A stretch of 60,558 nt of DNA from positions 1 to 60,558 of the IMG/VR virus record IMGVR_UViG_3300025808_000004, one strand, 5' to 3'. Below the pieces are notes generated by a model that worked only from the letters and a program-made list of their open reading frames with translations, ran no database searches and was not told where the DNA came from. Position numbers and translations under genes: made by a program. Positions 42,475-55,839 of this stretch are shown here, piece by piece (the first letter of the stretch is position 1; each line of letters begins with the position of its first letter). Origin of the DNA: a virus. Its lineage: Duplodnaviria; Caudoviricetes.

Positions 42475-42664
42475 GTGTTTTGAGATGATCCGTTGGCCCA
42501 GCTGCCATTAGCTCAGGTCGATTAATAACCGGGAAGAGCCGTCTTAGTGGTAAGACGCATAAGCTCCTGCCGACGGATCATCTCAGAGCACGTGTGTGTC
42601 CGTGGAGGTCCTGCGTGCTCGGAAGGCCCGGTGTGGTATTGGACGTGGCGCACCGGGTCTTTTT
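42475..42664 (+). ncRNA. candidate structured RNA / attenuator upstream of the DNA polymerase gene
   Basis: 23-bp basal stem 42475-42497/42569-42591 with G-U pairs; internal hairpins with complementary loops; terminator at 42624-42664; upstream TATACA-18-TATACT. Confidence 0.65.
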
Positions 42665-42681
42665 ATTCTGCCGGGGGCCCC

Positions 42682-44943
42682 ATGATAGTAGGTGATTTTG
42701 AGACACGCTCTGCTTGTGATCTGAAGAAAGCAGGCGCATGGGCATATTCGACACATCCCACAACGGAAGTCATGTGTTTCTGCTGGAACTTCCAAGAAGA
42801 CCCTATTGAGCAGGTCTATGAGTGGCAAGCTGGGTTCCCGCATCTCGGCATTGACCAGTCACCATTTCCCCAAGAGCTGGCAGACCGCATTGCTGCCGGA
42901 GAAATTCTTGAAGCCCACAATGCTTTCTTTGAATATTGTATTTGGAACCACGTCTGGTGCAAAATGCTTCCGGGCCTGCCAGAGCTATCACTTAATCAGA
43001 TCCGATGCTCTGCAGCTAAAGCGGCGACATTTGCCTTGCCTCGTGCTCTTGACAAAGCCATTGCGGCATTAGGCCTTCCTCAAAAGAAGGATATGGAGGG
43101 CTCGGCTAATATGCTGAAGCTTGCCAAGCCCCGCAAGCTGACTGCAGACGAAAAGCGACATTTCGAAGCACAGGGTGTTGACCCTGGGACTGTGATACTC
43201 TTCCTGGAAAACCGGGAGATGATACTTCGCAACACTAAGTATTGTGCTCAGGACGTCCGGGCTGAACGTGGGCTATCCTCTGTTCTACGAGAATTGCCAC
43301 CCCGTGAGCTTGAGTTTTGGCAGATGGACCTTCGCATGAATGCCCGGGGCATTACGTGCGACATGGCCTTGGTGCATATAGCAATCAAGCTTGCCGAAGA
43401 GGACACAGACCACCAGAATGCCGAGTTGAAAGAACTTACGGACGGCATGGTCGAGAAAGCCTCTGGCCGTATGAAGTTCAAACAGTGGATGCATGACAAT
43501 GGTGTCAAAATCCCGAATACCCAGGGGGCAGTCATTGACATCCTTCTAGGACATGACCCTGGAGATGAAGAAGCCACAGCCGAGCTTAGGGCTGAACTTC
43601 GTGGTCTTGCCGAAACCATTACACCAAAAACACGGCGCGCCCTTGAAATTGTGCGGGACGTCAACCGATCGTCCGTCGCCAAATACAAGCAGATGATTAT
43701 CCAAGTTTCTGAAGGCAATCGCCTCAGGGACATGATGCTCTATTGCGGAGCTGCACGAACTGGCCGTTGGTCAGGCAAGGGTGTCCAGCCACACAACTTC
43801 ATCCGTGGGTATTCAGAGATTATGCAGGAGGTCTGCCAAGACATCCTTAAAGCTGATCCCGAAAGACTGCGCCTGCTCTACAACGGGTCTGTCCTCGAGG
43901 TGCTATCCAAAGCTACTCGTGGGGCTATGGTTGCGGCATACGGCAAAAAGCTGATGGTAGCTGACTTCGCGGCCATTGAAGCTCGGGTGCTTCTGTGGCT
44001 TGCGCTAGCTATGTCTGCCCTTGACATCTTCTATCGCGGCGAGGACATTTACTTGGACATGGCTTCTGCCATTTTCAAGTATCCATGCACCAATAAGGAC
44101 GACTTCCCATTCGAGCGTAAAGTTGGCAAGGCTGCAATTCTCGGTCTCGGCTATCAGATGGGCTGGGAGAAGTTTGAAGATGAGTGCCGCAATAAGAACG
44201 GGATCACCGACCAAGAACCTGAGTTTTTCAAAGACGTTGTTCGGGTCTATCGTGAAGAACGCTTTCCAGAAATAAAGTCCTTCTGGTATGACTTTGAGGT
44301 AGCTGCCATTAAAGCCGTAAGGCAGTATGACCCAAAAACCATGTCTAAGGGGCCGCGTATTGAATGCCGTCGCCTAGCTTGGTTTATGTGGGGTCAGTTC
44401 CTCCATATGGAATTGCCATCCGGTCGGTTACTCGCCTATTTTAGGCCGCTAATCAAGGTAAGGAAAACTTATCGGTTTCCGGCGCTTAACGAGCGAGGGC
44501 ATGAATGCACTGCAATGGCCACTGGCGGAGCAGACCTAACAGAGACTCAAGCCCGTAGGCTTGCAATAGCCAGGGCAAAAATTGCCAACAAAAAACTCAT
44601 ACCGAATGGCAAGGTTCAGCTATTTAAGAGTGAAGTCCTCACCTTCATGCATGAAAACTCCGTCACTCGTCAGTGGGAACGGAAAGAGACATACGGCGGA
44701 GAGCTGGTTGAAAACGCCACACAAGCAACAGCGCGTGACTTGATGGCCGAGGCGATGTTGCGGGTTGACAACCATCCAGACTATGATTTATTGTTGTCTG
44801 TGCACGATGAAGAGATTGCCGAATGTGACGAGGGCAAAGGCAATCTCGAAGAGTTTGAGGCTCTTATGGAAGAACTACCTAGCTGGGCTGAAGGCTGTCC
44901 AGTTAACGCTGAAGGCTGGGAAGGTTATAGATACAGGAAGTAG
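42682..44943 (+). CDS. family A DNA polymerase with 3'-5' exonuclease
   Basis: DFETRS, AHNAFFE, YCAQDV, TGRWSG, motif A DFAAIEARVL, motif B RKVGKAAILGLGY, ENATQA, motif C VHDE; start at ATG 42682. Confidence 0.95.
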   Translation: MIVGDFETRSACDLKKAGAWAYSTHPTTEVMCFCWNFQEDPIEQVYEWQAGFPHLGIDQSPFPQELADRIAAGEILEAHNAFFEYCIWNHVWCKMLPGLPELSLNQIRCSAAKAATFALPRALDKAIAALGLPQKKDMEGSANMLKLAKPRKLTADEKRHFEAQGVDPGTVILFLENREMILRNTKYCAQDVRAERGLSSVLRELPPRELEFWQMDLRMNARGITCDMALVHIAIKLAEEDTDHQNAELKELTDGMVEKASGRMKFKQWMHDNGVKIPNTQGAVIDILLGHDPGDEEATAELRAELRGLAETITPKTRRALEIVRDVNRSSVAKYKQMIIQVSEGNRLRDMMLYCGAARTGRWSGKGVQPHNFIRGYSEIMQEVCQDILKADPERLRLLYNGSVLEVLSKATRGAMVAAYGKKLMVADFAAIEARVLLWLALAMSALDIFYRGEDIYLDMASAIFKYPCTNKDDFPFERKVGKAAILGLGYQMGWEKFEDECRNKNGITDQEPEFFKDVVRVYREERFPEIKSFWYDFEVAAIKAVRQYDPKTMSKGPRIECRRLAWFMWGQFLHMELPSGRLLAYFRPLIKVRKTYRFPALNERGHECTAMATGGADLTETQARRLAIARAKIANKKLIPNGKVQLFKSEVLTFMHENSVTRQWERKETYGGELVENATQATARDLMAEAMLRVDNHPDYDLLLSVHDEEIAECDEGKGNLEEFEALMEELPSWAEGCPVNAEGWEGYRYRK

Positions 44944-44998
44944 GGTATACTTTCTAGCTATAGAAGTGCAAAACTGGCCACATGGATTATACGATAGC

Positions 44999-46504
44999 AT
45001 GACCGTAAACTACCTCAAATCCTCTATAGCCCATTGGCCGGAAGTTGATCCGTCAAAGCCTCGCTGGACTCACCAGCTCGAGGAATTGGAGGAGTATGGT
45101 CTTGACAAAGCTCGTGGGCTATTGTGGGGAATGCGGACCGGCAAGAGCAGGATCATTGTCGACAGTGCCAATGCTCTTCGAGATGGCGGCAAAATCCGTG
45201 GCGGGCTTATCTTTGCCCCTAATGGCGTTCACCTCAACTGGGTGCTGAAGCAAATCCCATTTTATTCGTGGCCTGGCATGTCTTGGAGCGCACAGCACTG
45301 GAGTTCTGACTTTGCGCGGGAACATCCGAGTTCTTGGTCGGAGAGGTTCTGTGCTCTGCTCAAGTCAAATGCAGACATGCGCTGGTTTACTGTCAATTCG
45401 GAAAGTCTCATTATGCCAGCAGTCAAGAAAGCCATCAACCAGTTCCTTGACTCTGTCAATGGTGAAGTGATAGCCATTGCTGATGAGAGTGTGGACTTTC
45501 GCACTCCGGGCTCAAAGCGCACCAACGTTGCTAGAGCCTATTTCAAGCGCCTGCCATTCCGCCGTATTCTTGATGGCACTGCGCTAATGAACAGCCCCCT
45601 GCACGCGTTCAGTCAATTTGAACTGTTGGAACCTGGGGCTTTGGGTTTCCGTAAATATGAGGATTTTAAGCAATACCACTCTGTGTGGCGGAGCGTGAGG
45701 AACAAAGCGGGGCGCTATTATCCAAAGTTGGACCACTACACAAATCTGGAGACCCTTCGTGAAAACATCGGAGATTATGCCAGTGTAGTTCTTCGTGAGG
45801 ACTGTGACATGCCCGACCTTCTGCCGATTGAGGTGGTGGTGGAGATGTCCGAGCTTCAAAAGAGGGCATACCTTACCCTCATTGAGAAAAACCTGCTTGA
45901 GTTTGAGAACGGAGCTGAAATTGATGCCATTGAAGGTGGCAAGCGGGCAATAAAGTTCCATCAAATTGTATCAGGCTTTGCCATCGATGACTTTGGGGAC
46001 ATTCAGTCTATAGATGATGATCCACCTATCCTACAAGAGCTCAGGAGGCAGGTAGTTGACACCCCCAAATATATCGTCTGGTGCCGCTTTAGAGAGGATA
46101 TTCGCCGCGTTTCCAACGCTCTCCGGGCCATGGGCCACAAGATTGTGGAATACCATGGAGGAGTGCCACAAGGCTTGCGGGCTGGATACGTCGACCAGTT
46201 CAATAATGATGACGCTACAGTTGGCCTTGTCGGGCAGCCACAAGCTGGTGGCCGAGGACTTGAATTGCCCTGTGACGCTATCATCTGGTATTCAAGCACT
46301 TATGACGCTATTATCCGCAACCAAGCAAACGAGCGTGGAACCATCATGGGCGGCCGATCCGTTTCCATCATCACACTCGCTACGCCGGGCACTGTTCACG
46401 ACGACATTATCGCTTCCGCAGAGCAGAAAGTCTGCATTGGTGACTGGGTGGCCGGTTCTGGTTTACGTGATAGCTTAATGCGCTGGAAAAGTAACTTATC
46501 ATGA
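44999..46504 (+). CDS. SNF2-like SF2 DNA helicase
   Basis: GMRTGKS, IADES, ILDGT, QAGGRGLEL, QANER; start probably ATG 44999. Confidence 0.85.
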   Translation: MTVNYLKSSIAHWPEVDPSKPRWTHQLEELEEYGLDKARGLLWGMRTGKSRIIVDSANALRDGGKIRGGLIFAPNGVHLNWVLKQIPFYSWPGMSWSAQHWSSDFAREHPSSWSERFCALLKSNADMRWFTVNSESLIMPAVKKAINQFLDSVNGEVIAIADESVDFRTPGSKRTNVARAYFKRLPFRRILDGTALMNSPLHAFSQFELLEPGALGFRKYEDFKQYHSVWRSVRNKAGRYYPKLDHYTNLETLRENIGDYASVVLREDCDMPDLLPIEVVVEMSELQKRAYLTLIEKNLLEFENGAEIDAIEGGKRAIKFHQIVSGFAIDDFGDIQSIDDDPPILQELRRQVVDTPKYIVWCRFREDIRRVSNALRAMGHKIVEYHGGVPQGLRAGYVDQFNNDDATVGLVGQPQAGGRGLELPCDAIIWYSSTYDAIIRNQANERGTIMGGRSVSIITLATPGTVHDDIIASAEQKVCIGDWVAGSGLRDSLMRWKSNLS

Positions 46505-46614
46505 CTGCTCGTCGAAAGTTACTTAAAAGAATACCATATAACCTAAGCGCTAGTACAAGGGGATTTGCATAAATTCTACTTGATGAGTGTTGGCTAAATA
46601 AGCTCTTTTGCTGG

Positions 46615-46643
46615 CTTACAAGCACTGAGCAGATAGCTATTCT
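46615..46643 (+). promoter_or_regulatory. sigma70-type promoter
   Basis: CTTACA-17-TATTCT. Confidence 0.6.
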
Positions 46644-46705
46644 CAATATTGTTCACTGAGACTGAAGACTACGACTGAAACCAGACCGAACATGAGGAGC
46701 TTACT

Positions 46706-47167
46706 ATGAAATCGATCCTGTCCCCGATTGTGGACATCCTGCCACTGATTAATTTTGCTGCCCCCGATACCACTTCTGGTGCCGCCGCTGGTGGGAAACC
46801 GACGGCAAAGCCGACCGATGCACCGGCAGCCATTGCCAAGCCTGCTGGAGCCAAGCCTGCCGAAAAGGCTGAACCGAAGCGTGGCATCGGCACTGCGGCA
46901 ATGGAAGCAATCTTGAACTCGGCCACCAACGAGGAGGCTCTGGCGGCCGTCCGCAAGGAGTTCCCGGACGCCAACACCACGAAGGCGTCGATCAACTGGT
47001 ATCGGAACAAGTTGCGCAAGGATGGCACGATCAGTACCGGCGGCATCTACAAGGGCAAGCCCGTTCCGAACGCGCGCGAGATGGCCAAGGACGCCAAGCC
47101 GGCCGAGGCACCCAAGGCGAAGGACACCAAACCCACCGCAGCTGCTGGCGATGATCCGACCGCCTGA
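46706..47167 (+). CDS. AKP-rich (histone-like) wHTH DNA-binding protein (FPDANTT family), ends DDPTA
   Basis: GAGGAG RBS; EFPDANTTKASINWYRNKLRKDG flanked by Ala/Lys/Pro repeats. Confidence 0.75.
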   Translation: MKSILSPIVDILPLINFAAPDTTSGAAAGGKPTAKPTDAPAAIAKPAGAKPAEKAEPKRGIGTAAMEAILNSATNEEALAAVRKEFPDANTTKASINWYRNKLRKDGTISTGGIYKGKPVPNAREMAKDAKPAEAPKAKDTKPTAAAGDDPTA

Positions 47168-47190
47168 GGCCTGACTCACTCACAGTGCAA

Positions 47191-47225
47191 AAAGGGCCCG
47201 GGCTTCAATGCCCGGGCTTTTCTTT
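47191..47225 (+). terminator. rho-independent terminator
   Basis: GCCCGGGC-TTCAAT-GCCCGGGC followed by a T-tract. Confidence 0.8.
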
Positions 47226-47310
47226 ATAGGGCTGCATTCTATAAACTTAGTGGTTTCATTTCCAATTATAACATAGTATTCTAAATACAACAGAGTAAGT
47301 GGAGAATACC

Positions 47311-48363
47311 ATGTCTGCAGGAATTGAGATGAATGGCGTCTTCTATCAGAACGTCTACTATATGCCAATGGCCCACGGCATTGGTGCAGACAGCCAAGGT
47401 CGTTATGAAATCAAAGACCCACCAAACTGCGGTTGGTCTCGGGCTTTGGTCATTTGGCCTGACGATGATGACGAGCCTGTTACTGGATCGCGTCGCAGGA
47501 AGAAAACCGCCAAGCGGGTGACCCTGTTCTGTCCGTATACCCTGGAGGCCTATCAGATCACCCCAGCAGCCCGTGAAGTGGCCCATCAAACAGCCTATCC
47601 ATTGACTGAGACTCTCATCTGCGAGCTGGAAAACATCATCAGCCGGAACTGGAAAATATATGCTGGCTTTGGGCACCAGAAAGCCTATGATGTTGCAGCA
47701 CTAGTTCTAACGAAGCTCGGGAAAGCCGTTCCCAACTACATGTCACCGGCATTGGAAAATCTCGAGTATACCGAGGACAATGTGCCCAATCGCCATGGTA
47801 AGCCGGTTGGAGAGGCCCTGCTCCGACCAATCAACCGGGACTCCAAGCGCGGACAGGTTGCGGCCTTCTTCCTGGAAAGCAACAGTGGGTCAATTCGCGA
47901 AGCAATGGCCAAGTTTGATATGTCCCGCTCGGGTGTGCTGACCCACCTCCACGGCCTCAACAAGGATCATGGCTTGGGCTATGTCCTTCAGGGCGACGTG
48001 GCCACCATCATGCTTCCGCCGGAGTGCACGGACCCTCTGGCCGACGAGACGGTTGTCCAAGTTCATACCCAAGCAGTCTCTGCCCAACGAGCAGGCAAAA
48101 CTTGCAAGCCCACTGTCACTGCTTTGCCTGCCAAAGGCAAGCGGCGCGAAGTGGCTCTGCTAATGCTCGAGGAAACAGCCATTGTAGACGTGGCCGAGAA
48201 GGTTGGCTGTTCAGTCAACTCTGTCAGGTCACACCTCCATGACCTGCATACAAAACACGGGTTCGGTTACGGGTTGTCTCCGGACAAGGCACGTGGTAAG
48301 CTGCTCGTGCCGGCTGGATGGACTGCCGACTATGATCCTGAAGACCTTGACCCGCTAGCCTGA
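47311..48363 (+). CDS. protein with two tandem C-terminal wHTH domains, ends DPLA
   Basis: Repeats KRGQVA...SRSGVLTHLHGLNKDHGLGY and KRREVA...SVNSVRSHLHDLHTKHGFGY; GGAG RBS. Confidence 0.7.
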   Translation: MSAGIEMNGVFYQNVYYMPMAHGIGADSQGRYEIKDPPNCGWSRALVIWPDDDDEPVTGSRRRKKTAKRVTLFCPYTLEAYQITPAAREVAHQTAYPLTETLICELENIISRNWKIYAGFGHQKAYDVAALVLTKLGKAVPNYMSPALENLEYTEDNVPNRHGKPVGEALLRPINRDSKRGQVAAFFLESNSGSIREAMAKFDMSRSGVLTHLHGLNKDHGLGYVLQGDVATIMLPPECTDPLADETVVQVHTQAVSAQRAGKTCKPTVTALPAKGKRREVALLMLEETAIVDVAEKVGCSVNSVRSHLHDLHTKHGFGYGLSPDKARGKLLVPAGWTADYDPEDLDPLA

Positions 48364-48372
48364 GGAGCGCAC

Positions 48373-49467
48373 ATGGAATTGTCCAAAGTATCATCGTGGA
48401 TGGAGAGGTATCTTGCTCTCGTCCACCGCTTCAACGCCGACATTATCGGCCTGCCAATTCCCGAGACGCCGACCCGTCTTGGTGAGACCCGCAAAAAATG
48501 GGCGCTCGATGCGCTCAACGAAGAAGTGGGCGAGTTCTTTGCTGCCAAGACTCTCGAAGACGAGGTGGATGCTCTGGTCGATTTGTCCTACTTTGCACTC
48601 GGTCGTCTGATCGAGATGGGTGTGGTTCCCGGTGCCGTCTTCGACGAAGTCCATGAAGCCAACATGCGCAAGCGCCGGGGCGAGCTGTCCAAGCGGCCGA
48701 ACAGTCTTGGCTTCGATGCCATGAAACCCAAGGGATGGACCGGCCCTGATCTGCTTCCCTACCTCGGTCTGGATCGCTCTGACGTTCGTGCGATGTATGA
48801 CGTGAAGTTAGCCGAGCGTGAGCTTGCCGAAGCTGCACAGACGCTCGACGCCGAGCCAGGGGAAGCTGGAAAGCCGAAGTTTCTGATACTCGGCCACGCC
48901 CGGCACGGCAAGGATACCGTGGCGGAAATCCTCCGCGATTGCTACGGCTTCACCTTCACCTCGTCCTCGTTGTTCTGTGCGGAGAAGGTGATTTGGGAAG
49001 CAGTGCACAATCATGGAGATGCACTCGATCGTCACGAGAAAGCAGGCCAACCGGGCATGTCCACGCTGACACTCCACGAAGAGCTTGAGATGATGAAAGG
49101 CCGCGGATACTCGAGTTACACGGAATGCTTCGCTGACCGGGCCAACTTCCGTGCGGCCTGGTTCTCCCTGATCGCTGCCTACTGCTATCCTGACAAAGAA
49201 CAACTAGCCCGTGAAATCTATGCAGAGAATGACATCTATGTTGGCATCCGCAACACCCGTGAACTGAATGCAGTTCTCAACTCGGGGCTGGCAGACGTGT
49301 CCATCTGGGTTGATGCAAAGGAACGCATTGGCCCCGAGCCGCTGAGTTCCTGCACCGTTGAGCCGTGGATGGCTATGTTCACCATCGACAACAACGGGAC
49401 AGCTGAAGACCTTCATCGGAACGTCCACCAGCTGATGTCTACCCTTGGTATTGAAAGGATTGCGTGA
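48373..49467 (+). CDS. fusion of a MazG/PRA-PH-like NTP pyrophosphatase and a dNMP kinase-like P-loop domain
   Basis: N-terminal EEVGEF...EVDALVDL.YF..G...FDEVHEANM.K...KPKGW; C-terminal ILGHARHGKDT, GIRN..E, IDNNGT. Confidence 0.8.
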   Translation: MELSKVSSWMERYLALVHRFNADIIGLPIPETPTRLGETRKKWALDALNEEVGEFFAAKTLEDEVDALVDLSYFALGRLIEMGVVPGAVFDEVHEANMRKRRGELSKRPNSLGFDAMKPKGWTGPDLLPYLGLDRSDVRAMYDVKLAERELAEAAQTLDAEPGEAGKPKFLILGHARHGKDTVAEILRDCYGFTFTSSSLFCAEKVIWEAVHNHGDALDRHEKAGQPGMSTLTLHEELEMMKGRGYSSYTECFADRANFRAAWFSLIAAYCYPDKEQLAREIYAENDIYVGIRNTRELNAVLNSGLADVSIWVDAKERIGPEPLSSCTVEPWMAMFTIDNNGTAEDLHRNVHQLMSTLGIERIA

Positions 49468-50411
49468 TGCAAGCTATGTCATTCCACGAAGTCTACCGAG
49501 GCTTGCTGTTGGAGCTTATGAACCACGGTGTGACCGAGGTGAACGAGCGCACCCACACCAAGATCAGGATGCTCCAAGGCGGCCATTCGTTCAAACTGGA
49601 TTTGTCTGATGGACGTTTGCCTGTTGCGGGTAATCGGCGCTATTACCCACACATTGCAGCAGCGGAAACAGTTTGGCAATTCATGGGCACAAAAGACCCG
49701 GCGTTCATCGTCGGCAAGGCACCTAAGCTCTGGTCGAAGTTCGTGGAGACTGAGACCGTCAAAGAAGATCGGGGCAACGGGCCACACAACGTGGAGCGGA
49801 AGGTTCTCAAGACTGCCTATGGCTGGCGGTGGCGTCATGAGTTCGGGCGCGATCAGCTTGAGCTGGCAATCCACGAACTGAAGACCAATCCGACCAACAG
49901 ACAGTTGTTCATCTCGGCATGGGACCCACGATCTGATGGCCTTGGCGGGGTTCAGCCGAAGAATATTCCCTGCCCCGTCGGGTTTACACTTTCGCGGTTT
50001 ATGAACGACCTGCACATGAACGTCTTCATCCGTTCCAGTGATGTGTTCATCGGCCTGCCCTACGATGTGATGAGCTATGCCCTGACCGCTGATGCGGTTG
50101 CTGCCACCATAGGCCTCCGGCCGAGGACCTTGCACTTCACGCTAGCGCACGCTCACCTCTATGAGCCACACTGGACAATGACTGAAGCCTGTCTTACTGG
50201 CACCAAGCCTGTTTATGCTGGCAAAGCCCGTGACGGGGTAGATGTCAGTAAAGCCTCAACTATCTGGGCGGACAACGTGCAGCTGAACCTCCCGGGCTGG
50301 GATATTCAGGCCATCCTCGACAATCCCGATGGCTATGTCGCCATCGTGAGAACCCTGGCAGGCCGCACGAGCCAGAACGCCTGGGACCCAATGCCCGACG
50401 TAATCGAATGA
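49464..50411 (+). CDS. thymidylate synthase family enzyme, predicted dCMP-specific (methylase/hydroxymethylase)
   Basis: AYG.RWR..FG.DQL, catalytic PC (Cys 49971), RSSDVFIGLPYD with Asp (50064-50066) where ThyA has Asn177, HLY. Confidence 0.85.
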   Translation: MMQAMSFHEVYRGLLLELMNHGVTEVNERTHTKIRMLQGGHSFKLDLSDGRLPVAGNRRYYPHIAAAETVWQFMGTKDPAFIVGKAPKLWSKFVETETVKEDRGNGPHNVERKVLKTAYGWRWRHEFGRDQLELAIHELKTNPTNRQLFISAWDPRSDGLGGVQPKNIPCPVGFTLSRFMNDLHMNVFIRSSDVFIGLPYDVMSYALTADAVAATIGLRPRTLHFTLAHAHLYEPHWTMTEACLTGTKPVYAGKARDGVDVSKASTIWADNVQLNLPGWDIQAILDNPDGYVAIVRTLAGRTSQNAWDPMPDVIE

Positions 50412-50605
50412 CAGTGCTGACGGCAGACACCCATGCTGGCCGCACAGAGCAGCAGGACAAGCTCTGGGCGCAAGGCACTCCCGTTCATAACCATGTGGAC
50501 GGTGAGTGCTGCCTCGACTTTTCGTGCTGCGAACCTGACTTGTTTCAGAAGGATGAAAGCAAGCGGTGGGCCTACTATTATGAAGAGCACGGAAGACTGG
50601 ATTAA
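50408..50605 (+). CDS. small Cys-rich hypothetical protein
   Basis: W..G.PVHN....ECC.DFSCC.P; overlaps both neighbours. Confidence 0.6.
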   Translation: MTVLTADTHAGRTEQQDKLWAQGTPVHNHVDGECCLDFSCCEPDLFQKDESKRWAYYYEEHGRLD

Positions 50606-51180
50606 TGACTTGGATACACCCGACAACCCGTCGTGGCGCATCCACTCGAACTCAGGCGGAGTGTGACTGCCCCACTCCGCCTGTATGCTCAAGGGAGGAG
50701 TATAAAGCGGTGGAAGATCAGACTTCATTCATGTCTAAATGGGATTTGCGCTTTATGGGCTTGGCGGCTCAAGCGCGGTCCTGGACAAAAGGCCTTGGCA
50801 ACGGGGTGATCGACCGAGGTGTCGGGGCGTGCGTCGTCTCGCCTGACAAGAGCCAGTTCTCGCTTGGCTTTGCGGGTTTCCCGAAAGGGATCAAAGATAC
50901 GCCCGAGCGGCTAGCAAACCCTGAATTCCGCGCCTATCACACAGTGCATGCGGAACTGAATGCTATCCTCAACGCGAGGACGTCCTTGATCGGCTGGACT
51001 CTCTACTCGACAGAATGCCCTTGTGCCGAGTGCTCCAATGCAATCGTGCAAGCTGGCATTGTTCGCGTGGTTTCCACCCCGCCGCGCCATTCCTCGAATT
51101 GGCGCCAGTCACAGCTCGAGGGCGCTGACACGCTGCGCGAGGCTGGGATTATCATCAATCGCATGGAGCATTTCCTATGA
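50605..51180 (+). CDS. dCMP deaminase
   Basis: WD.RFM.LA, VGAC, HAELNAILNA, PCAEC...I.QAGI. Confidence 0.9.
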   Translation: MTWIHPTTRRGASTRTQAECDCPTPPVCSREEYKAVEDQTSFMSKWDLRFMGLAAQARSWTKGLGNGVIDRGVGACVVSPDKSQFSLGFAGFPKGIKDTPERLANPEFRAYHTVHAELNAILNARTSLIGWTLYSTECPCAECSNAIVQAGIVRVVSTPPRHSSNWRQSQLEGADTLREAGIIINRMEHFL

Positions 51181-51377
51181 GCCATGATATTAGAGTGGCT
51201 TTCGTGCACGCCCAGTACGTGTGCGGGATAGCTGAAATGGAAGCCATGAAAGCAGCCAATCATGCCCGTGAAAAACAAGATCATTCCCACGCCTATGGCG
51301 AAGACGCCTTCGGGTCTTTGGAAAGTCAATTCATGATCGGGCATAACGCCGTTATCAAATATCTGCGGGACAGGTGA
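51177..51377 (+). CDS. hypothetical protein
   Basis: AEMEAMKAAN..RE......AYGED.F pattern; GGAG RBS. Confidence 0.6.
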   Translation: MSHDIRVAFVHAQYVCGIAEMEAMKAANHAREKQDHSHAYGEDAFGSLESQFMIGHNAVIKYLRDR

Positions 51378-51378
51378 C

Positions 51379-51891
51379 ATGAACCTCATAATGGCGATCA
51401 GCCACAATGGCTATGTAGCGCGCTCTGCAAATGACGACATGTCCTGGACCGGGCCTGTCGACAAAGCGGTGTTCAAACTGCTGACAAGCACGCACCCGGT
51501 TCTTGCCGTTTCGGCTAAGACCTTGGAATATATGCCCAAATCGCTCCCCGGACGTGGCAAGCTCTATGCTTTGTCGACCGACCCACGCAAGGGAGTGAGC
51601 TTGGAAGACATGACCCGCTTCGCTCCAGACGCGTGGTTGCTGGGCGGGCAAGAGATTGCCCTTTATGCATTAAAGAATGGCTTTGTGGCAAAAGCCTATC
51701 TGTGCATTGCTGCAGATACAGACGTGGAGCCTGGGCCTGAGGCCATTCAGGATCGCTTGCGGCCCTACTTCGAAGGCCGGCGCTATGTCAAAGGACGTGG
51801 TTCCTGGTGGGATCAAACCCTGCGAGTGAAGATCGACAGTCTTCTGGTCGAAGTTTGGGAACGCGGGAGTGCCATACATGAGCTGGACTAA
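51379..51891 (+). CDS. dihydrofolate reductase-like protein
   Basis: LIMAISHNGYVA....MSW...DK.VFK.LT, KT...MP..LPGR, LLGG.EI. Confidence 0.8.
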   Translation: MNLIMAISHNGYVARSANDDMSWTGPVDKAVFKLLTSTHPVLAVSAKTLEYMPKSLPGRGKLYALSTDPRKGVSLEDMTRFAPDAWLLGGQEIALYALKNGFVAKAYLCIAADTDVEPGPEAIQDRLRPYFEGRRYVKGRGSWWDQTLRVKIDSLLVEVWERGSAIHELD

Positions 51892-52357
51892 AATAGGCGA
51901 AGCTTGGGCTTTCTTTGAAAAGGCTTTGGCCAGTAATACCAAAGAATGTATTCTCTGGCCGTTTTCACTTCAGCCTACTGGTTATGCTCGTATGAAACGG
52001 CATGGAAAATCCATGTTTGTGCACAGGGCTATTTGTATTGCAGTGCACGGGCCTTGTCCGGAAAATCATGAGACTGCTCACTCTTGTGGAGTTAGGGCGT
52101 GTATAAACCCTAAGCACGTTTCTTGGAAAACAAAACTTAAAAATGCTCAAGATAAGAAGAGGCACGGCACTGATAACTCAGGTCAACGGAATGGACGAGC
52201 CAAGCTTACTTGGGAAATTGTTTCACAAATACGTGCTGCTAGAGGAAAAGAACGCCAAATTGATTTAGCCCACAAATTTGGAGTTAGTATAGGAGTGGTA
52301 TGTAAAATCCAACTTAATCAAATTTGGAAAGAACCCAGTCGTGACGAAAACAGCTGA
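51869..52357 (+). CDS. HNH homing endonuclease
   Basis: CILWP, VHR..C...HG, HSCG...CINPKH..W.T...N..D; C-terminal AKLT HTH; more AT-rich than its neighbours. Confidence 0.85.
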   Translation: MPYMSWTKIGEAWAFFEKALASNTKECILWPFSLQPTGYARMKRHGKSMFVHRAICIAVHGPCPENHETAHSCGVRACINPKHVSWKTKLKNAQDKKRHGTDNSGQRNGRAKLTWEIVSQIRAARGKERQIDLAHKFGVSIGVVCKIQLNQIWKEPSRDENS

Positions 52358-52802
52358 GTCCAATCTGTGGAACTCAATGCGGACAGCCCTGAAAATTTTC
52401 AGAGCTGACCTGCATTACACCCGCATTGAAAACTCCGTATCCGACGGGTTCCCGGACGTGGAAATGCAACTGCTGGTTGATGGAATATCCTATCATGCCA
52501 CAACAGAATTAAAGACAGCACACCGACCAGTACACTCCGAGACTCCGGTTTCTGTCAAGATCAGACCTGGGCAGATACCGTGGCTGAAGAAACGCTGGAA
52601 CGTCAGGGGTTCCGCCTGGCTGCTTCTTCAAGTAGGATCGGGTCATGAACTTGCACGTTATCTGATCCCCGGAAACTTAGCTGGAGAAGTAAGCGAAGGC
52701 CGAACTGAGAAGTGGCTGCTAGATCATTCGGTTTGCAAGCCAAAAGACCCACTTGGTCATATCGCTAGAATAGCATGCACTTGGAGGAGCCATGAAGCCT
52801 GA
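52341..52802 (+). CDS. VRR-NUC / Holliday-junction-resolvase-like PD-(D/E)XK nuclease
   Basis: ES.LW, RIENSV..GFPD, ELK, IRP.Q..W. Confidence 0.75.
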   Translation: MTKTAESNLWNSMRTALKIFRADLHYTRIENSVSDGFPDVEMQLLVDGISYHATTELKTAHRPVHSETPVSVKIRPGQIPWLKKRWNVRGSAWLLLQVGSGHELARYLIPGNLAGEVSEGRTEKWLLDHSVCKPKDPLGHIARIACTWRSHEA

Positions 52803-53130
52803 GCGCAATATAATACCTGGGCTTGGCAGATTTAGCCAATATACCATCGCCCTCTTAAGGCTAGTATATTTGGCTCCTGGCCTAAATCAGAGGGCTTATG
52901 CCCATAAAGCGTTGATGCTCCCGCTTATTGATGCTGAGTTGTTGGTATACAGTTCTAAAAGGACTGGCCAGACCAAGCTCACTCCTAAGGGCCACGCTTT
53001 TCTGCGCCAACACAAGCTAGACCACTTTGGCTTCGAGAAAAGGCACACCGAACAATACCCAACTCAGATGGCCAACAATGCCGCGCTGATGGAAGCAATG
53101 TCTAAGTTCACTGGGCATTATGAGTCATGA
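52792..53130 (+). CDS. hypothetical protein (wHTH-like, LT.KG motif)
   Basis: GGAGG RBS; LIDAELL...KLTPKG. Confidence 0.55.
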   Translation: MKPERNIIPGLGRFSQYTIALLRLVYLAPGLNQRAYAHKALMLPLIDAELLVYSSKRTGQTKLTPKGHAFLRQHKLDHFGFEKRHTEQYPTQMANNAALMEAMSKFTGHYES

Positions 53131-53456
53131 AGATCATAGCCACAATAGCTGGAGCAACTTTCCGTGAGGAAGGAACTGAAATCGTCACTAGCCTGAAACC
53201 AGGCCAACGGTATCGTCTTGAGCGCGAGCCCTCCAATCCACATGACTTGAATGCTGTTCAAATTTGGGTTGACAACTACGTCTATGGGCGACGCGATCCG
53301 AAATCTTATCATCTTGGTTATGTTCCGCGCAAGTGGTCCGGGACTGTCTCGGCGGCACTTGCCAACAACCGCATCCACGTGTGGGCCAAAAAGCCAGACG
53401 CACACTGGGGAACTATATTGATATTGTGGGTTGACATTTCATTTGATCCGCTGTAG
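53127..53456 (+). CDS. HIRAN domain protein, ends FDPL
   Basis: IAG..FR, L.PG....LEREP.NPHD.NAV, LGYVPR. Confidence 0.85.
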   Translation: MKIIATIAGATFREEGTEIVTSLKPGQRYRLEREPSNPHDLNAVQIWVDNYVYGRRDPKSYHLGYVPRKWSGTVSAALANNRIHVWAKKPDAHWGTILILWVDISFDPL

Positions 53457-53459
53457 AGT
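53431..53459 (+). promoter_or_regulatory. sigma70-type promoter
   Basis: TTGACA-17-TAGAGT. Confidence 0.6.
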
Positions 53460-53487
53460 AAATTATATACAGTAGAAAGGAACGTCC

Positions 53488-53949
53488 ATGTATATCTGCT
53501 GCTGCGTCCCCTCGGAACACAACCCCAATGGCATTCACACCATCTTCGAAGTCACTGGTCCAGTCCTTGACCTCTATTTGGCTTCTGTGGCCGCTCCAGG
53601 CAGCCAAGCCAGCACCGACGCTTCGCTGATGACCCTGATGAACGGCGCTGAAGTGCAAAGCCGCCACAGTGACGGCGTTGTCTGGTTCCGTGTCCACACC
53701 CCGATGTGCTACACGCCCAAACCCACTGAGTGCCAAATTACCAAGGCCCGTCTCGGCAACGTCATGTATGATGGCAAAACCCGTCATGGCCCGTGGGCCA
53801 TTATGTGTGAAGCAGCCTGGGAATTGTATGGCTGCGGCAAACTGGGCACTAGCTTCGGGCAGAAGTACCTGCGGAACGAAGCCGGGGAGTTCTATATCTC
53901 CGAGGGTATGTCGTCGCGTCCGTGCCCCTATCGGGTGAGCGCAGCATGA
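53488..53949 (+). CDS. hypothetical phage protein (YDGKT..GPWA.MC...G.G.GQKY motif)
   Basis: AAGGA RBS; recognisable C-terminal motif. Confidence 0.65.
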   Translation: MYICCCVPSEHNPNGIHTIFEVTGPVLDLYLASVAAPGSQASTDASLMTLMNGAEVQSRHSDGVVWFRVHTPMCYTPKPTECQITKARLGNVMYDGKTRHGPWAIMCEAAWELYGCGKLGTSFGQKYLRNEAGEFYISEGMSSRPCPYRVSAA

Positions 53950-54260
53950 GCCTTCAGTTCTATGCCCTCAAAGCCGACAACGGCTGGTATATTCCCCACC
54001 CCCTCGGTCGCAATGGCCGAGGGGGCACGCACGTCGAGTTGGTAGACCCAACCTCGGGTATCGCTCCGCGCCTGTTCAACAACGAGAGCTCTGCTAAAGT
54101 GGCACTGCGCTGGTGGCTTGGTGGGGCGGTGAGTGTCAATCGCTTGGTGTCAGGTGGATTTGATGACGAGTGGAACGATGAAACGTGGCATACAGAGATG
54201 AAGCCTGAGCGGTATCATCACAATGTTCAAGTCGTTTCTGTGAGGATTGAAGGCCTATGA
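53946..54260 (+). CDS. hypothetical protein
   Basis: ATGA overlaps; PRLF....AK.AL.WW..G. Confidence 0.6.
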   Translation: MSLQFYALKADNGWYIPHPLGRNGRGGTHVELVDPTSGIAPRLFNNESSAKVALRWWLGGAVSVNRLVSGGFDDEWNDETWHTEMKPERYHHNVQVVSVRIEGL

Positions 54261-54637
54261 CCCGCATCAACTGTGTTCCTGTCGGGCAGCTTACTCGTCA
54301 ACACCTGGTGGCTGAGTATCGTGAGCTTCCGCGCATCTTTGGTATGGTTCGCGGCCTGATTGAGCGCGGCATTACCAGCCCAAAGCGTGCCGATATTCCG
54401 GTGAGCTATCGCATGGGCACCGGGCACATGAAGTTTTTCACTGACAAACTTGGCTGGCTTGTGCAGCGGCAGAAAATGCTCATACTAGAAATGCAGCGCC
54501 GGGGTTACGCTCCGCAGCGCACCGATCCCGAAAGTCTCCTCGACGGCATCCCGGAGGCATTCCACGGTTCTTGGTCGCCGACCGATAAAGACCTTGAAAT
54601 CTCGTGGGCCCGTATTCAAGAGCGCCTCAATGGCTAA
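54257..54637 (+). CDS. denV: pyrimidine-dimer DNA glycosylase (T4 endonuclease V family)
   Basis: MTRINCVPV..L..QHLVAEYRELPRIF, Y.MGTGHMKFF.DKL..L..R...L..EM..RG. Confidence 0.93.
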   Translation: MTRINCVPVGQLTRQHLVAEYRELPRIFGMVRGLIERGITSPKRADIPVSYRMGTGHMKFFTDKLGWLVQRQKMLILEMQRRGYAPQRTDPESLLDGIPEAFHGSWSPTDKDLEISWARIQERLNG

Positions 54638-54797
54638 ATGGGCCGCTGTGCAGCGCTATGCTAAGGGCTGTGGATACGTTAGTTGCTACGGCTTAGAAAG
54701 CCGTGAAGCAGCAATTGCTTGGCTCCAAAAAAGCTGGAGCTGGGACCGCTGTTTCTATTTGTCACCGTCTTGGGAAATACGGGAACTTAAGAACTAG
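54630..54797 (+). CDS. hypothetical protein
   Basis: Fills the gap between denV and the next gene. Confidence 0.45.
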   Translation: MAKWAAVQRYAKGCGYVSCYGLESREAAIAWLQKSWSWDRCFYLSPSWEIRELKN

Positions 54798-55118
54798 ATG
54801 GCCAATCAAGCTAGCCCTAAATACATCAAGGAGTCCCAAGCAAGGGCTATAACCTACAAAGTTCTTTGCGGGATTGTGAAGCTGTATGGCGAGGCCACCG
54901 TTCCCGAAATACGGGCCAAATATAAATCGATTTCTAAAACTTGGAATTTGCCTTATGACTGGATAACTCACGAAAGTGCTATTGCATATCTCAATCAGGG
55001 CGTGCAGAATGGATTGCTAAGATATGAGCGCCGCAAAAAGGGTGTGGTGACTAATCGACGCATCCATGGTATGGCCGATGGTGCCGGTTACTATATCTGG
55101 ATTGGTAGCGATGAATAG
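54798..55118 (+). CDS. basic hypothetical protein (wHTH-like)
   Basis: Adjacent to the upstream stop; Lys/Arg-rich. Confidence 0.55.
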   Translation: MANQASPKYIKESQARAITYKVLCGIVKLYGEATVPEIRAKYKSISKTWNLPYDWITHESAIAYLNQGVQNGLLRYERRKKGVVTNRRIHGMADGAGYYIWIGSDE

Positions 55119-55121
55119 AGG

Positions 55122-55150
55122 TTGACAGTTATAGCTGTTTCCGCTATATT
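55122..55150 (+). promoter_or_regulatory. sigma70-type promoter
   Basis: TTGACA-17-TATATT. Confidence 0.75.
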
Positions 55151-55178
55151 ATTTATACAGTCACAGAAAGGAAGTAAC

Positions 55179-55574
55179 ATGTCCAACAACCCCCTGAAAA
55201 CGCGGTGTATCTCCACCGACCCGGAAGCCGTCGAACTCGGTTGGAAGCTGAAGCGGATTAATGAAACACACGGGATGCGTCAGCACGCTTTGATGGAAGA
55301 ATATCTGAGCAAGTCGGAAGCACTGACCAAGACGTCTCAGGTGGAACAGTCCGCTGTCTTCAACGAGCTAGCCAACAAAGTTGGCTTGAGCGCTGAAGAC
55401 TATGGTGATGGCGAAGACTGGGCGCTGAATATTGAGCACATAGCTGAGGGCGAAGTCGCTATGGTCCACAAAAGCTACTGGTCCCATGAAGACAACTGCC
55501 AGTGCTCGGTCTGTCAGCTCCGCCGTTCTTTGACAGGTGCACGTGACCTGGAAAAAGCACCTTGGGTGCATTGA
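55179..55574 (+). CDS. hypothetical protein with a C-terminal CxCxxC
   Basis: AAGGA RBS before ATG 55179; HEDNCQCSVC. Confidence 0.65.
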   Translation: MSNNPLKTRCISTDPEAVELGWKLKRINETHGMRQHALMEEYLSKSEALTKTSQVEQSAVFNELANKVGLSAEDYGDGEDWALNIEHIAEGEVAMVHKSYWSHEDNCQCSVCQLRRSLTGARDLEKAPWVH

Positions 55575-55762
55575 TGGGTCACCGAACTGATGAAACCTTC
55601 CACTTGGATCGCGCCTCTGCAGATGCAGCCCAAATGGTTAGAGGAACCCTAGGGTATAGCGAAGTTTATCCCCTTGGAGTGTTTCCTTGTAAAGTCAAAC
55701 ATCCTGAGACCAGCAAGGTCGTTGATGGTTGGAGGTCTGTGACGGAGACATACTACGGGTAA
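55574..55762 (+). CDS. hypothetical protein
   Basis: TGATG coupling; followed by the hairpin AACCGGCAG/CTGCCGGTT-TTC. Confidence 0.55.
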   Translation: MGHRTDETFHLDRASADAAQMVRGTLGYSEVYPLGVFPCKVKHPETSKVVDGWRSVTETYYG

Positions 55763-55839
55763 CCGGCAGATAGCACTGCCGGTTTTCTCATTTAACGATA
55801 TGCGCTATAGGTAGCACCTCAGCGTCAACGGGGAACCCC

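Follow-up and report, generated by a model that had tools for sequence, protein, structure and literature searches.

How does a phage make its cytosine and thymidine nucleotides when its only thymidylate synthase (TS) homologue has aspartate at the position where ThyA has a pyrimidine-selecting asparagine, and which cytosine does it place in its DNA? The question is raised by a cassette of four genes at positions 48373-51891 of IMG/VR record IMGVR_UViG_3300025808_000004, a virus of the Caudoviricetes. The record, 60,558 bases long and complete by CheckV, was analysed over its whole length and is called the window below. We think it likely that the cassette encodes a pathway of the type known from phage Xp12, leading to DNA in which 5-methylcytosine (5mC) replaces cytosine, with dTTP probably obtained through deamination of 5-methyl-dCTP (5mdCTP).

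The preliminary description of the window had proposed that the TS homologue is a dCMP methylase which, together with a pyrophosphatase, a kinase, a deaminase and a dihydrofolate reductase (DHFR), gives rise to a 5mC genome. This core is supported, because the enzyme is a full-length relative of Xp12 TS with 43% identity, the cassettes are collinear, the active-site signature is the same, and the Xp12 enzyme is reported to make 5-methyldeoxycytidine (5mdC); the level at which the deaminase acts, the argument from DHFR and a claim about queuosine genes need correction. All four genes were found by open reading frame (ORF), Pfam and PHROG matches where they had been placed, abutting or overlapping by 1-23 nt:

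48373..49467, plus strand: two-domain protein of 364 aa, with an N-terminal MazG/PRA-PH-type nucleoside triphosphate pyrophosphohydrolase, a linker, and a C-terminal P-loop domain resembling deoxynucleoside monophosphate (dNMP) kinases (PF01503; AlphaFold model)
49464..50411, plus strand: TS-family enzyme of 315 aa, predicted Xp12-type dCMP methylase (5-methyl-dCMP synthase) (PF00303, E 8.7e-36)
50710..51180 (ORF open from ATG 50605), plus strand: zinc deaminase of the cytidylate family, predicted to deaminate 5mdCTP (or 5-methyl-dCMP, 5mdCMP) and to supply thymidine nucleotides (PF00383)
51379..51891, plus strand: DHFR homologue of 170 aa (PHROG and PDB matches)

Active site of the thymidylate synthase homologue

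The fold of the protein is that of TS. Its model has a predicted local distance difference test score (pLDDT) of 91.5 and a predicted template modelling score (pTM) of 0.92, with a lower-confidence insertion at about residues 246-275, and the top 50 PDB fold matches listed are all ThyA. BLASTP gives E 1e-19 to E. coli ThyA and E 1e-4 to T4 gp42. The enzyme is not an ordinary ThyA, since it scores far under every NCBIfam TS equivalog cut-off: all eight matching models stay below their cut-offs, with 34-88 bits against cut-offs of 108-576, the best scores being 87.8 bits against 325 and 80.2 against 108.35 (TIGR03284). Two parts of the gene are of particular importance for what follows:

49962..49976, plus strand: active-site stretch N167-I-P-C170-P171 (alignment; N167, P169, C170 and P171 invariant in 31 sequences)
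50064..50066, plus strand: GAT codon of Asp201, equivalent to E. coli ThyA Asn177, the pyrimidine-selecting residue (MAFFT and HMMER alignments)

The MAFFT alignment matches RSSDVFIGLPYD to E. coli RSCDVFLGLPFN, and HMMER alignments to PDB chains match it to other ThyA as well; the aspartate noticed earlier in this motif is exact both in register and in coordinate (GAT, residue 201). C170 corresponds to the catalytic C146 of E. coli, N167 to L143 (position Cys-3) and P171 to H147. Both canonical ThyA residues at the diagnostic positions, Asn177 and His147, are thus replaced, by Asp and Pro, respectively. The catalytic set of R21, E58, Y94, C146, R166, S167, D169, H207 and Y209 (E. coli numbers) is conserved, and is invariant in 31 sequences of the clade; Asp193 of the window enzyme is the equivalent of Asp169. 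The C-terminal tail, ending in PMPDVIE, aligns with the tail of E. coli ThyA, and a motif P-x-P-x-V/L-V/I-x is found at the C-terminus of all 30 relatives examined.

Several of these positions have been assigned a role. According to the available part of the MetaGPA work, positions 177 and 147 are the best separators of modified from unmodified contigs, and Asn-to-Asp mutants of ThyA are described, in sources available in part, as shifted in substrate to dCMP. The accessible text of the paper on the ternary complex of T4 dCMP hydroxymethylase gives a signature of Asp or Glu at Cys-3, Ser or Thr at Tyr-2, and no C-terminal tail; there, the acidic residue at Cys-3 activates the substrate water, the T4 D145N mutant being inactive, and the tail, which the T4 enzyme lacks, seals the ThyA site for hydride (methyl) transfer. 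The window enzyme has one of these three features, Thr117 at Tyr-2, and has Asn167 and a tail at the other two. Ser or Thr at Tyr-2 does not discriminate, because Xp12 TS has Ser at this position. Asn in place of Asp169, which the 2026 5-hydroxycytosine paper, as far as its text is available, gives as diagnostic of 5-hydroxy-dCMP synthases of the RB69/DLP3 type, is not seen in the window enzyme, where Asp193 occupies the site. At every diagnostic position, i.e., Asp177, Pro147, Asn at Cys-3, Asp169 and the C-terminal tail, the window enzyme is the same as that of Xp12.

Kinship with Xp12, PaMx74 and AXL1

A megablast search of the cassette against phage records is nearly empty, the only match being an 11% stretch in RDJL3, and protein-level searches were therefore needed. 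A tblastn search with the window TS gave 2850 matching phage records, headed by RDJL Phi 1, RDJL Phi 2, RDJL3 and RDJL6 at 68-69% identity and Tedan at 60%, followed by full-length matches in Xp12, Bosavirus and Pamexvirus at 40-44%. The window and Xp12 enzymes are 43% identical over residues 5-315 (E 6e-72), and the similarity of the two phages extends to the helicase (44%), DHFR (40%), MazG domain (46%) and deaminase (33%). In Xp12, a helicase gene is followed by three small or unknown genes, one of which encodes a homologue of a 354-aa protein encoded upstream of the window cassette, and then by genes for a MazG-type 'hydrolase', TS, dCMP deaminase, DHFR, and a 148-aa protein. Seven homologous genes follow one order in the window and in Xp12: helicase, 354-aa protein, MazG, TS, deaminase, DHFR, and a 153-aa protein. 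The block is also collinear in PaMx74, RDJL Phi 1, RDJL3 and RcRudolph, and Tedan and JWX have the same layout without DHFR.

Xp12, PaMx74 and AXL1 belong to the Bradleyvirinae, Mesyanzhinovviridae, and share with the window both the gene order and the TS signature, but differ from the window phage, with its tail genes resembling those of gene transfer agents (GTA), in host group and tail module. There are also differences within the cassette itself: compared with Xp12, the window has an additional stretch in TS (residues 246-275, approximately) and, among the cassette genes, a pair of small ORFs and a gene for an HNH endonuclease, and where the window protein has the dNMP-kinase-like domain, the MazG proteins of Xp12 and PaMx74 continue into an unlike C-terminal extension that lacks a P-loop and is about 100 aa long. 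The extensions of Xp12 (L003:6216-6989) and PaMx74 (L008:2764-3501) are conserved between these two phages and have no detectable similarity to the window kinase domain; the possibility that they are diverged kinases was dropped, as BLASTP of the kinase domain found no homology to them, nor any to JWX gp40.

The chemistry of this phage group is known from a recent study (bioRxiv 10.1101/2024.12.05.627091), the available part of which reports that 5mC stands for all C in Xp12 DNA, with likewise full replacement in PaMx74; that 5mdC was formed when the Xp12 TS homologue was assayed in vivo in E. coli; that five of seven deaminase-linked Asp177 TS homologues from a coastal-seawater virome gave the same result; and that TS, dCMP deaminase and PRA-PH co-localise on contigs resistant to C5-sensitive restriction enzymes. 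The genome of AXL1 resisted 26 of 31 restriction enzymes, and its DHFR, about 91% identical to that of Xp12, is functional and raises trimethoprim resistance (AXL1 paper).

Roseophages of the RDJL type and the wider clade

RDJL3 is the closest cultured relative of the window phage. It has the cassette genes in the same order, with identities of 81% for the helicase, 74% for the 354-aa protein, 68% for the MazG-kinase fusion, 69% for TS, 83% for the deaminase, 65% for DHFR and 79% for the 153-aa protein. The fusion and the Asp-type TS are shared, moreover, by RDJL Phi 1, RDJL Phi 2, RDJL6, Ruegeria phage Tedan, RcRudolph and RcSimone-Hastad; the entire cassette is found in RDJL Phi 1 and RDJL3, and Tedan, unlike the window, is without DHFR. 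The suggestion that RDJL-type phages carry queuosine-pathway genes, to which the cassette would be an alternative module, is not supported, this TS homologue being present in each of RDJL Phi 1, RDJL Phi 2, RDJL3 and RDJL6; queuosine genes have been reported, in sources available in part, for R5C, R26L and Pan1.

A pattern scan of IMG/VR, with clade-specific patterns derived from an alignment of seven members, gave 57 loci, a count which includes the isolates themselves and near-duplicates (59 of 65 tree rows are distinct) and some loci cut by contig ends. Asp at position 177 and Pro at position 147 are present in 57 of 57. Homologues of the other genes lie within about 4.5 kb of the TS gene as follows:

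MazG domain: 53 of 57 loci
Deaminase: 52 of 57 loci
DHFR: 44 of 57 loci
153-aa protein: 44 of 57 loci
354-aa protein: 44 of 57 loci
Kinase domain: 24 of 57 loci

In a quick maximum likelihood tree (IQ-TREE, two outgroup sequences), the window enzyme falls into a supported set of 10 rows together with RDJL Phi 1 and Tedan, inside a group of 38 rows which holds all alphaproteobacterial-phage isolates in the tree (SH-aLRT 97). Xp12 and PaMx74 are in a separate group of 15 rows (SH-aLRT 98), and E. coli ThyA and T4 gp42 are placed outside, on very long branches. At three IMG/VR loci (L056, L064 and L068), the cassette proteins around TS mostly share about 60-72% identity with their counterparts in the window (47299-52802), whereas TS itself is only 39-43% identical and belongs to a different subclade. 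Judging from these sequences, an exchange of the TS gene between lineages seems to have taken place, with Asp177/Pro147 in both alleles.

GenBank names in RDJL Phi 1, RDJL3, Tedan, Xp12 and AXL1 are those of ordinary thymidylate-pathway genes. The MazG-type protein is labelled 'Cof hydrolase' or 'HAD hydrolase' in public records (RDJL Phi 1, RDJL3, Tedan, RcRudolph, Xp12), being kinase-fused in the roseophage and Rhodobacter phage records, and the Asp-type TS is labelled 'thymidylate synthase', or 'ThyX-like' in RcRudolph. The public annotations of these two proteins look misleading.

The MazG-kinase fusion

The protein that precedes TS consists of two domains:

48400..48777, plus strand: MazG-like all-alpha domain, residues about 10-135; predicted dCTP (possibly dUTP) pyrophosphatase (Foldseek matches and invariant acidic residues)
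48871..49452, plus strand: P-loop kinase-like domain, residues about 167-360; predicted 5mdCMP kinase (fold, and P-loop GHARHGKDT at 48892-48918)

Over its full length the protein matches phrog_38514 (E 9.8e-113), and phrog_139 'dNMP kinase' matches at the P-loop only. In the AlphaFold model (mean pLDDT 84.8), linker residues 149-165 are below 50 and disordered. The N-terminal domain matches PF01503 (PRA-PH) at residues 23-97, with E 2.1e-12 and 47.7 bits against a cut-off of 21.3, and Foldseek pairs it with DR2231, a MazG-like dUTPase (28% identity, TMt 0.53-0.62). Residues E50, E51, E54, D66 and D70, which we take to be the metal-binding acidic site of MazG, are invariant in 34 sequences.

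The kinase-like domain is modelled with pLDDT of 86-97 in every 10-residue block, mostly above 90. Its top PDB fold match is 1DEK, the T4 gp1 dNMP kinase (E 1.2e-3), several of its BFVD fold matches are named dNMP kinase, and G174, H178, G179, K180 and D181 of the P-loop are invariant. The whole fusion has 369 full-length-type relatives at E <= 1e-5, from 8000 candidates scored; among the named phages compared it occurs only in alphaproteobacterial phages, and JWX (gp40) has the MazG domain alone. The kinase-like domain is present in 39 phage records, and in N4-like roseophages it is found inside genes annotated 'thymidylate synthase'.

One of these genes, gp31 of RD-1410W1-01 (L077:2995-4521), has an N-terminal kinase-like domain fused to ThyX, and a short deaminase gene lies just upstream. 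The domain is the same as that of the window, with 38% identity by tblastn, 34% in the fold comparison (root-mean-square deviation 2.3) and a P-loop GYGRHGKDT; its partner is a flavin-dependent ThyX (PF02511, Thy1, E 1.3e-48), the product of which is dTMP, where the window partner is MazG. This fusion ties the domain to enzymes that make 5-methylpyrimidine dNMPs, and is the best indirect argument that the window domain would phosphorylate 5mdCMP.

The deaminase and dihydrofolate reductase

The deaminase matches PF00383 with E 6.6e-15 (55.3 bits against a cut-off of 25) and contains the zinc motifs HAE (HAELNAI) and PCxxC (PCAEC). Homology with the RDJL3 protein begins at residue 36, which is GTG 50710, with GGGAGGAG upstream. 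The gene therefore probably starts at this GTG, and a 42-residue N-terminal extension (50605-50731) is doubtful on sequence grounds. Identity is 83% to RDJL3 cd, 39% to the PaMx74 enzyme and 33% to that of Xp12.

The nearest solved relative is the dCMP/dCTP deaminase of PBCV-1 (7FH4, E 1.2e-14), an enzyme active on both dCMP and dCTP according to the available part of bioRxiv 10.1101/2024.12.05.627091. The same text describes mSCD-B5, a deaminase whose nearest structure is also 7FH4 and which deaminated 99% of 5mdCTP, with no detectable activity on dCMP or 5mdCMP; the model published there is 5mdCTP -> dTTP, and preference for the 5-methyl group and the triphosphate is sporadically distributed in the family. 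The mSCD-B5 cassette, from a coastal-seawater virome, resembles that of the window in that a deaminase of the dCMP family adjoins an Asp177 TS and a PRA-PH domain; unlike in the window, no fused kinase and no DHFR are mentioned in the available part of its account. By analogy, it appears more likely that the window enzyme acts on 5mdCTP, giving dTTP, than on 5mdCMP. Conversion of 5mdCMP into dTMP had been suggested before; the supply of thymidine by deamination of a 5-methylated nucleotide agrees with what is found here, but the step probably takes place at the triphosphate level, mSCD-B5, the one cassette deaminase characterised, being inactive on monophosphates. Thymidine supply at the triphosphate level also fits, because the window is without a second TS or ThyX.

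The DHFR homologue matches PF00186 over residues 2-70 only, with 23.3 bits against a cut-off of 25, and matches phrog_13578 'dihydrofolate reductase' with E 4.1e-34. All nine PDB sequences found at E <= 0.001 are DHFRs, the best (5.9e-8) covering residues 1-147. It is 65% identical to the RDJL3 protein and 40% identical to the N-terminal two thirds of Xp12 DHFR. The presence of DHFR had been taken to imply methylation, an argument which is weak alone: DHFR is found at 44 of the 57 loci and in neither Tedan nor JWX, and T4, a producer of hydroxymethyl-C, encodes frd as well.

Proposed pathway

From the observed domain identities, active-site residues, and homology and collinearity with Xp12, we infer every substrate and product of the following scheme, as well as the degree of substitution in virion DNA. 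The MazG-like domain would convert dCTP to dCMP, emptying the dCTP pool and feeding the next step. The TS homologue would combine dCMP with methylene-tetrahydrofolate into 5mdCMP and dihydrofolate, by the normal hydride transfer of TS at C5, and tetrahydrofolate would be regenerated by the phage DHFR. The fused P-loop domain would then phosphorylate 5mdCMP, and a host nucleoside diphosphate kinase would finish 5mdCTP. Finally, the small zinc deaminase would turn a part of the 5mdCTP (or 5mdCMP) into thymidine nucleotide, so that no ordinary TS would be needed. The genome of the window phage, as predicted from its genes, is probably fully methylated.

The scheme resembles the hydroxymethylcytosine pathway of T4 (gp56 dCTPase, gp42, gp1, cd, frd, td) in the removal of dCTP, followed by a TS-family enzyme with Asp at position 177 and then by a phage dNMP kinase. 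It differs in that T4 gp42, as described in the available text, carries an acidic residue (Asp) at Cys-3, ends without the C-terminal tail and releases tetrahydrofolate, whereas the window enzyme has Asn and a tail. T4 has, besides, a true TS (td) and glucosyltransferases, and its genes are scattered and unfused, unlike those of the window.

A broader proposal is that all alphaproteobacterial siphophages of the RDJL type (RDJL Phi 1, RDJL Phi 2, RDJL3, RDJL6, Tedan, RcRudolph, RcSimone-Hastad and many marine virome relatives) package fully 5mC DNA, that their MazG-kinase protein is bifunctional, removing dCTP and directing the methylated product towards DNA precursors, and that its kinase family is specialised for 5-methylpyrimidine dNMPs (5mdCMP or dTMP) and represents the gene for a phage-induced 5mdCMP kinase of the Xp12 type. 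We advance it tentatively, as a conjecture that may well fail in one part or another. A phage-induced 5mdCMP kinase was reportedly characterised biochemically for Xp12 decades ago; since Xp12 does not have the kinase domain discussed here, its enzyme would have to be encoded elsewhere.

Alternative explanations

A dCMP deaminase, a TS and a DHFR are also the classical set for de novo thymidylate supply, in which dCMP is deaminated to dUMP and methylated to dTMP, DHFR recycles the folate, and DNA remains unmodified. GenBank records name the genes in this sense, and the fold and most of the catalytic residues of the TS homologue are those of ThyA. Such a role nevertheless looks very unlikely: neither Asn177 nor His147 is retained, Asp and Pro standing in their places in the window and in all 57 clade members, the scores fall far below all NCBIfam TS equivalog cut-offs, and, in the sources available in part, Asn-to-Asp mutants move ThyA to dCMP and 5mdC is given as the product of the Xp12 homologue. 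We also consider it very unlikely that the enzyme modifies C5 in some other way, for instance as a dCMP hydroxymethylase, and that the DNA contains 5-hydroxymethylcytosine or a derivative. Asp177 is common to the window enzyme and T4 gp42, Thr at Tyr-2 agrees with one of the three hydroxymethylase features, the polar Asn at Cys-3 might admit water, and TS homologues with unexpected products are described in partly available work, 5-hydroxy-dCMP being an example. What speaks against this possibility is the lack of Asp or Glu at Cys-3 (with T4 D145N inactive), the presence of the tail, Asp rather than Asn at position 169, and the formation of 5mdC, in the available report, by the Xp12 enzyme with the same signature. 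In addition, similarity to T4 gp42 reaches only E 1e-4, no hydroxymethylase is among the top 50 fold matches listed, and Pfam finds no glycosyl-, carbamoyl- or other transferase in the 62 further ORFs of the window. An intermediate situation, in which the TS homologue methylates both dCMP and dUMP, or dCTP is incompletely excluded, so that 5mC is partial and the deaminase also converts dCMP to dUMP, is still unlikely, if not to the same extent. Sequence fixes no ratio of activities, the nearest solved relative of the MazG domain is a dUTPase, and the PBCV-1 deaminase, in the partly available account, accepts dCMP and dCTP; Xp12 and PaMx74, the two characterised phages with this cassette, are on the other hand described there as replacing C entirely, and the AXL1 genome withstood 26 of 31 restriction enzymes.

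Full replacement of C by 5mC through an Xp12-type pathway thus remains the explanation we favour, with a number of points to be set against it. In the window phage and in the RDJL-type phages, 5mC is predicted from genes and not from chemistry, and only five of the seven Asp-type enzymes in the available part of bioRxiv 10.1101/2024.12.05.627091 gave 5mdC. At Cys-3, where ThyA has Leu, the window enzyme has a polar Asn, and Thr117 resembles the Ser or Thr of hydroxymethylases; the TS tree is a quick version with two outgroup sequences. DR2231, the closest MazG protein of solved structure, hydrolyses dUTP; the assignment of dCTP specificity is a guess. DHFR cannot be obligatory, because 13 of the 57 related loci are without it, and the kinase domain is not required for a 5mC genome, because Xp12 and PaMx74 do not have it. 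The kinase assignment itself comes from the fold and the P-loop. The name is a fold-based call, since support at the sequence level is weak: Pfam DNMK (PF21448) has no match in the 364-aa protein, a phmmer search of PDB with the kinase domain gave nothing related (there was a single chance match to a lectin, E 0.093), and hhalign of the family profile against T4 gp1 gave a weak result (probability 21%, E 0.001). PF21448 is carried by one relative, P0095, and RD-1410W1-01 gp31 matches it weakly (E 0.005). Such doubt as is left has to do with the product that is really made, with how complete the substitution is, and with the specificities of the accessory enzymes.

Neighbouring genes

The cassette lies in a run of plus-strand ORFs at 47.3-52.8 kb, which abut or slightly overlap; the ORFs that the minus strand has here lie across genes backed by homology, and nothing independent speaks for them. 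The other members of the run are:

47299..48363, plus strand: conserved upstream protein of 354 aa, with weak helix-turn-helix (HTH)-like C-terminal matches (phrog_11422, E 5.8e-68)
50408..50605, plus strand: small ORF of 65 aa between TS and deaminase (no Pfam or PHROG match)
51177..51377, plus strand: small ORF of 66 aa between deaminase and DHFR (no Pfam or PHROG match)
51869..52357, plus strand: HNH endonuclease of 162 aa between DHFR and the 153-aa gene, overlapping both by about 20 nt (PF13392 HNH_3, E 1.4e-9)
52341..52802, plus strand: conserved downstream protein of 153 aa (phrog_2165, 'DNA helicase', E 5.3e-28; no Pfam match)

The HTH-like matches of the 354-aa protein, to Pfam HTH_28 and Sigma70_r4_2, are below cut-offs; its homologues occupy the same position in Xp12, PaMx74, RDJL Phi 1, Tedan, RcRudolph, JWX and RDJL3. 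The two small ORFs have one homologue each among the 57 related loci, in both cases in the same slot: the 65-aa ORF in L064 (48%) and the 66-aa ORF in L056 (55%). RDJL3 has an ORF of 88 aa between TS and deaminase, without a BLAST match to the 65-aa ORF. Nine PHROG HNH/endonuclease families match the 162-aa protein, which has no homologue at any of the 57 related loci, in flanks of up to about 4.5 kb on each side; the slot is empty in the RDJL3 cassette. The gene is probably a recent homing-endonuclease insertion into a nucleotide-metabolism operon and lies outside the pathway. The 153-aa protein is homologous to RDJL Phi 1 gp14 and Xp12 QNN97211, and the RcRudolph homologue is annotated 'nuclease'. 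It is probably a small nuclease, as its sequence suggests; in our own reading, a GFPD...ELK pattern resembles PD-(D/E)XK.

Upstream, the longest helicase ORF (44765-46504, plus strand, from TTG 44765) overlaps a preceding ORF of 798 aa (42547-44943, plus strand) by about 180 nt. The true start of the helicase is probably near 45000, because alignment with the RDJL3 helicase does not begin before residue 79. A hairpin with a perfect 8-bp GC stem (GCCCGGGC, 6-nt loop, GCCCGGGC) is located at 47196-47217, in the gap 5' of the 354-aa gene, and terminators are annotated at roughly the same point in the PaMx74 and JWX records; the hairpin may mark the start of the cassette transcription unit. Scans of 44000-56000 for promoters (11, against 7.8 +/- 3.0 in shuffled sequence) and terminators (14, against 11.6 +/- 3.9) gave numbers not above expectation, and Rfam has zero matches in the window.

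Genome and affiliation of the phage

The large terminase subunit, TerL, shares 85% identity with its counterpart in Roseobacter phage RDJL3 and about 54-56% with those of Pseudomonas phages of the Mesyanzhinovviridae type. The preliminary description had called the phage a GTA-tailed roseophage, and the Pfam families of the tail module, GTA_TIM, DUF2460, Phage_BR0599 and Rcc01698_C, all of the GTA type, bear this out. PF00303 has one match in the entire record of 60,558 bases. In the 62 further ORFs (28 + 34, of at least about 85 aa), Pfam at E <= 0.001 finds no Thy1, DNA methyltransferase, glycosyltransferase, Tet_JBP, TGT or QueC; the earlier statement that the phage has no second ThyA or ThyX and no glycosyltransferase holds as far as Pfam sees. 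A PrimPol-DUF5906 primase is encoded at 32668-35049 on the minus strand, and other Pfam families at 32.6-60.5 kb include a family A DNA polymerase, an ATP-dependent DNA ligase, HIRAN, PD-(D/E)XK and DUF2800 proteins, a T4 endoV-like pyrimidine-dimer glycosylase (Pyr_excise), and a ribonucleotide reductase with a TSCPD domain.

Implications for roseophage biology

The principle of the pathway is already known, from Xp12 and from the virome work with MetaGPA, including that on coastal seawater. A full-text literature search, with most subscription journals outside its coverage, found no report linking RDJL phages or roseophages with 5mC; PMC5463345 and PMC13392355 contain nothing on DNA modification in RDJL phages, and PMC11946847 makes no link between roseophages and 5mC. 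What is new is the proposal that culturable roseophages of the RDJL type have 5mC genomes and a fused MazG-kinase protein. These phages are standard marine phage-host models, in which thyA, cd and frd are read as nucleotide-supply or 'auxiliary metabolic' genes, and 5mC is not visible in assembled contigs or base-called reads. Roseobacter denitrificans OCh114 is a host for both RDJL3 and RDJL Phi 1, so that the prediction is cheaply testable, and the fused kinase and the small deaminase are candidate reagents, as a 5mdCMP kinase and a 5mC-selective deaminase, respectively.

If the prediction is true, the way in which these genes are counted in viromes would change, and so would the behaviour of the phage DNA in restriction digests, cloning, bisulfite or enzymatic methyl-sequencing, and nanopore base-calling. 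For the phages themselves, it would mean a changed resistance to host restriction and a changed sensitivity to methyl-dependent (type IV) nucleases.

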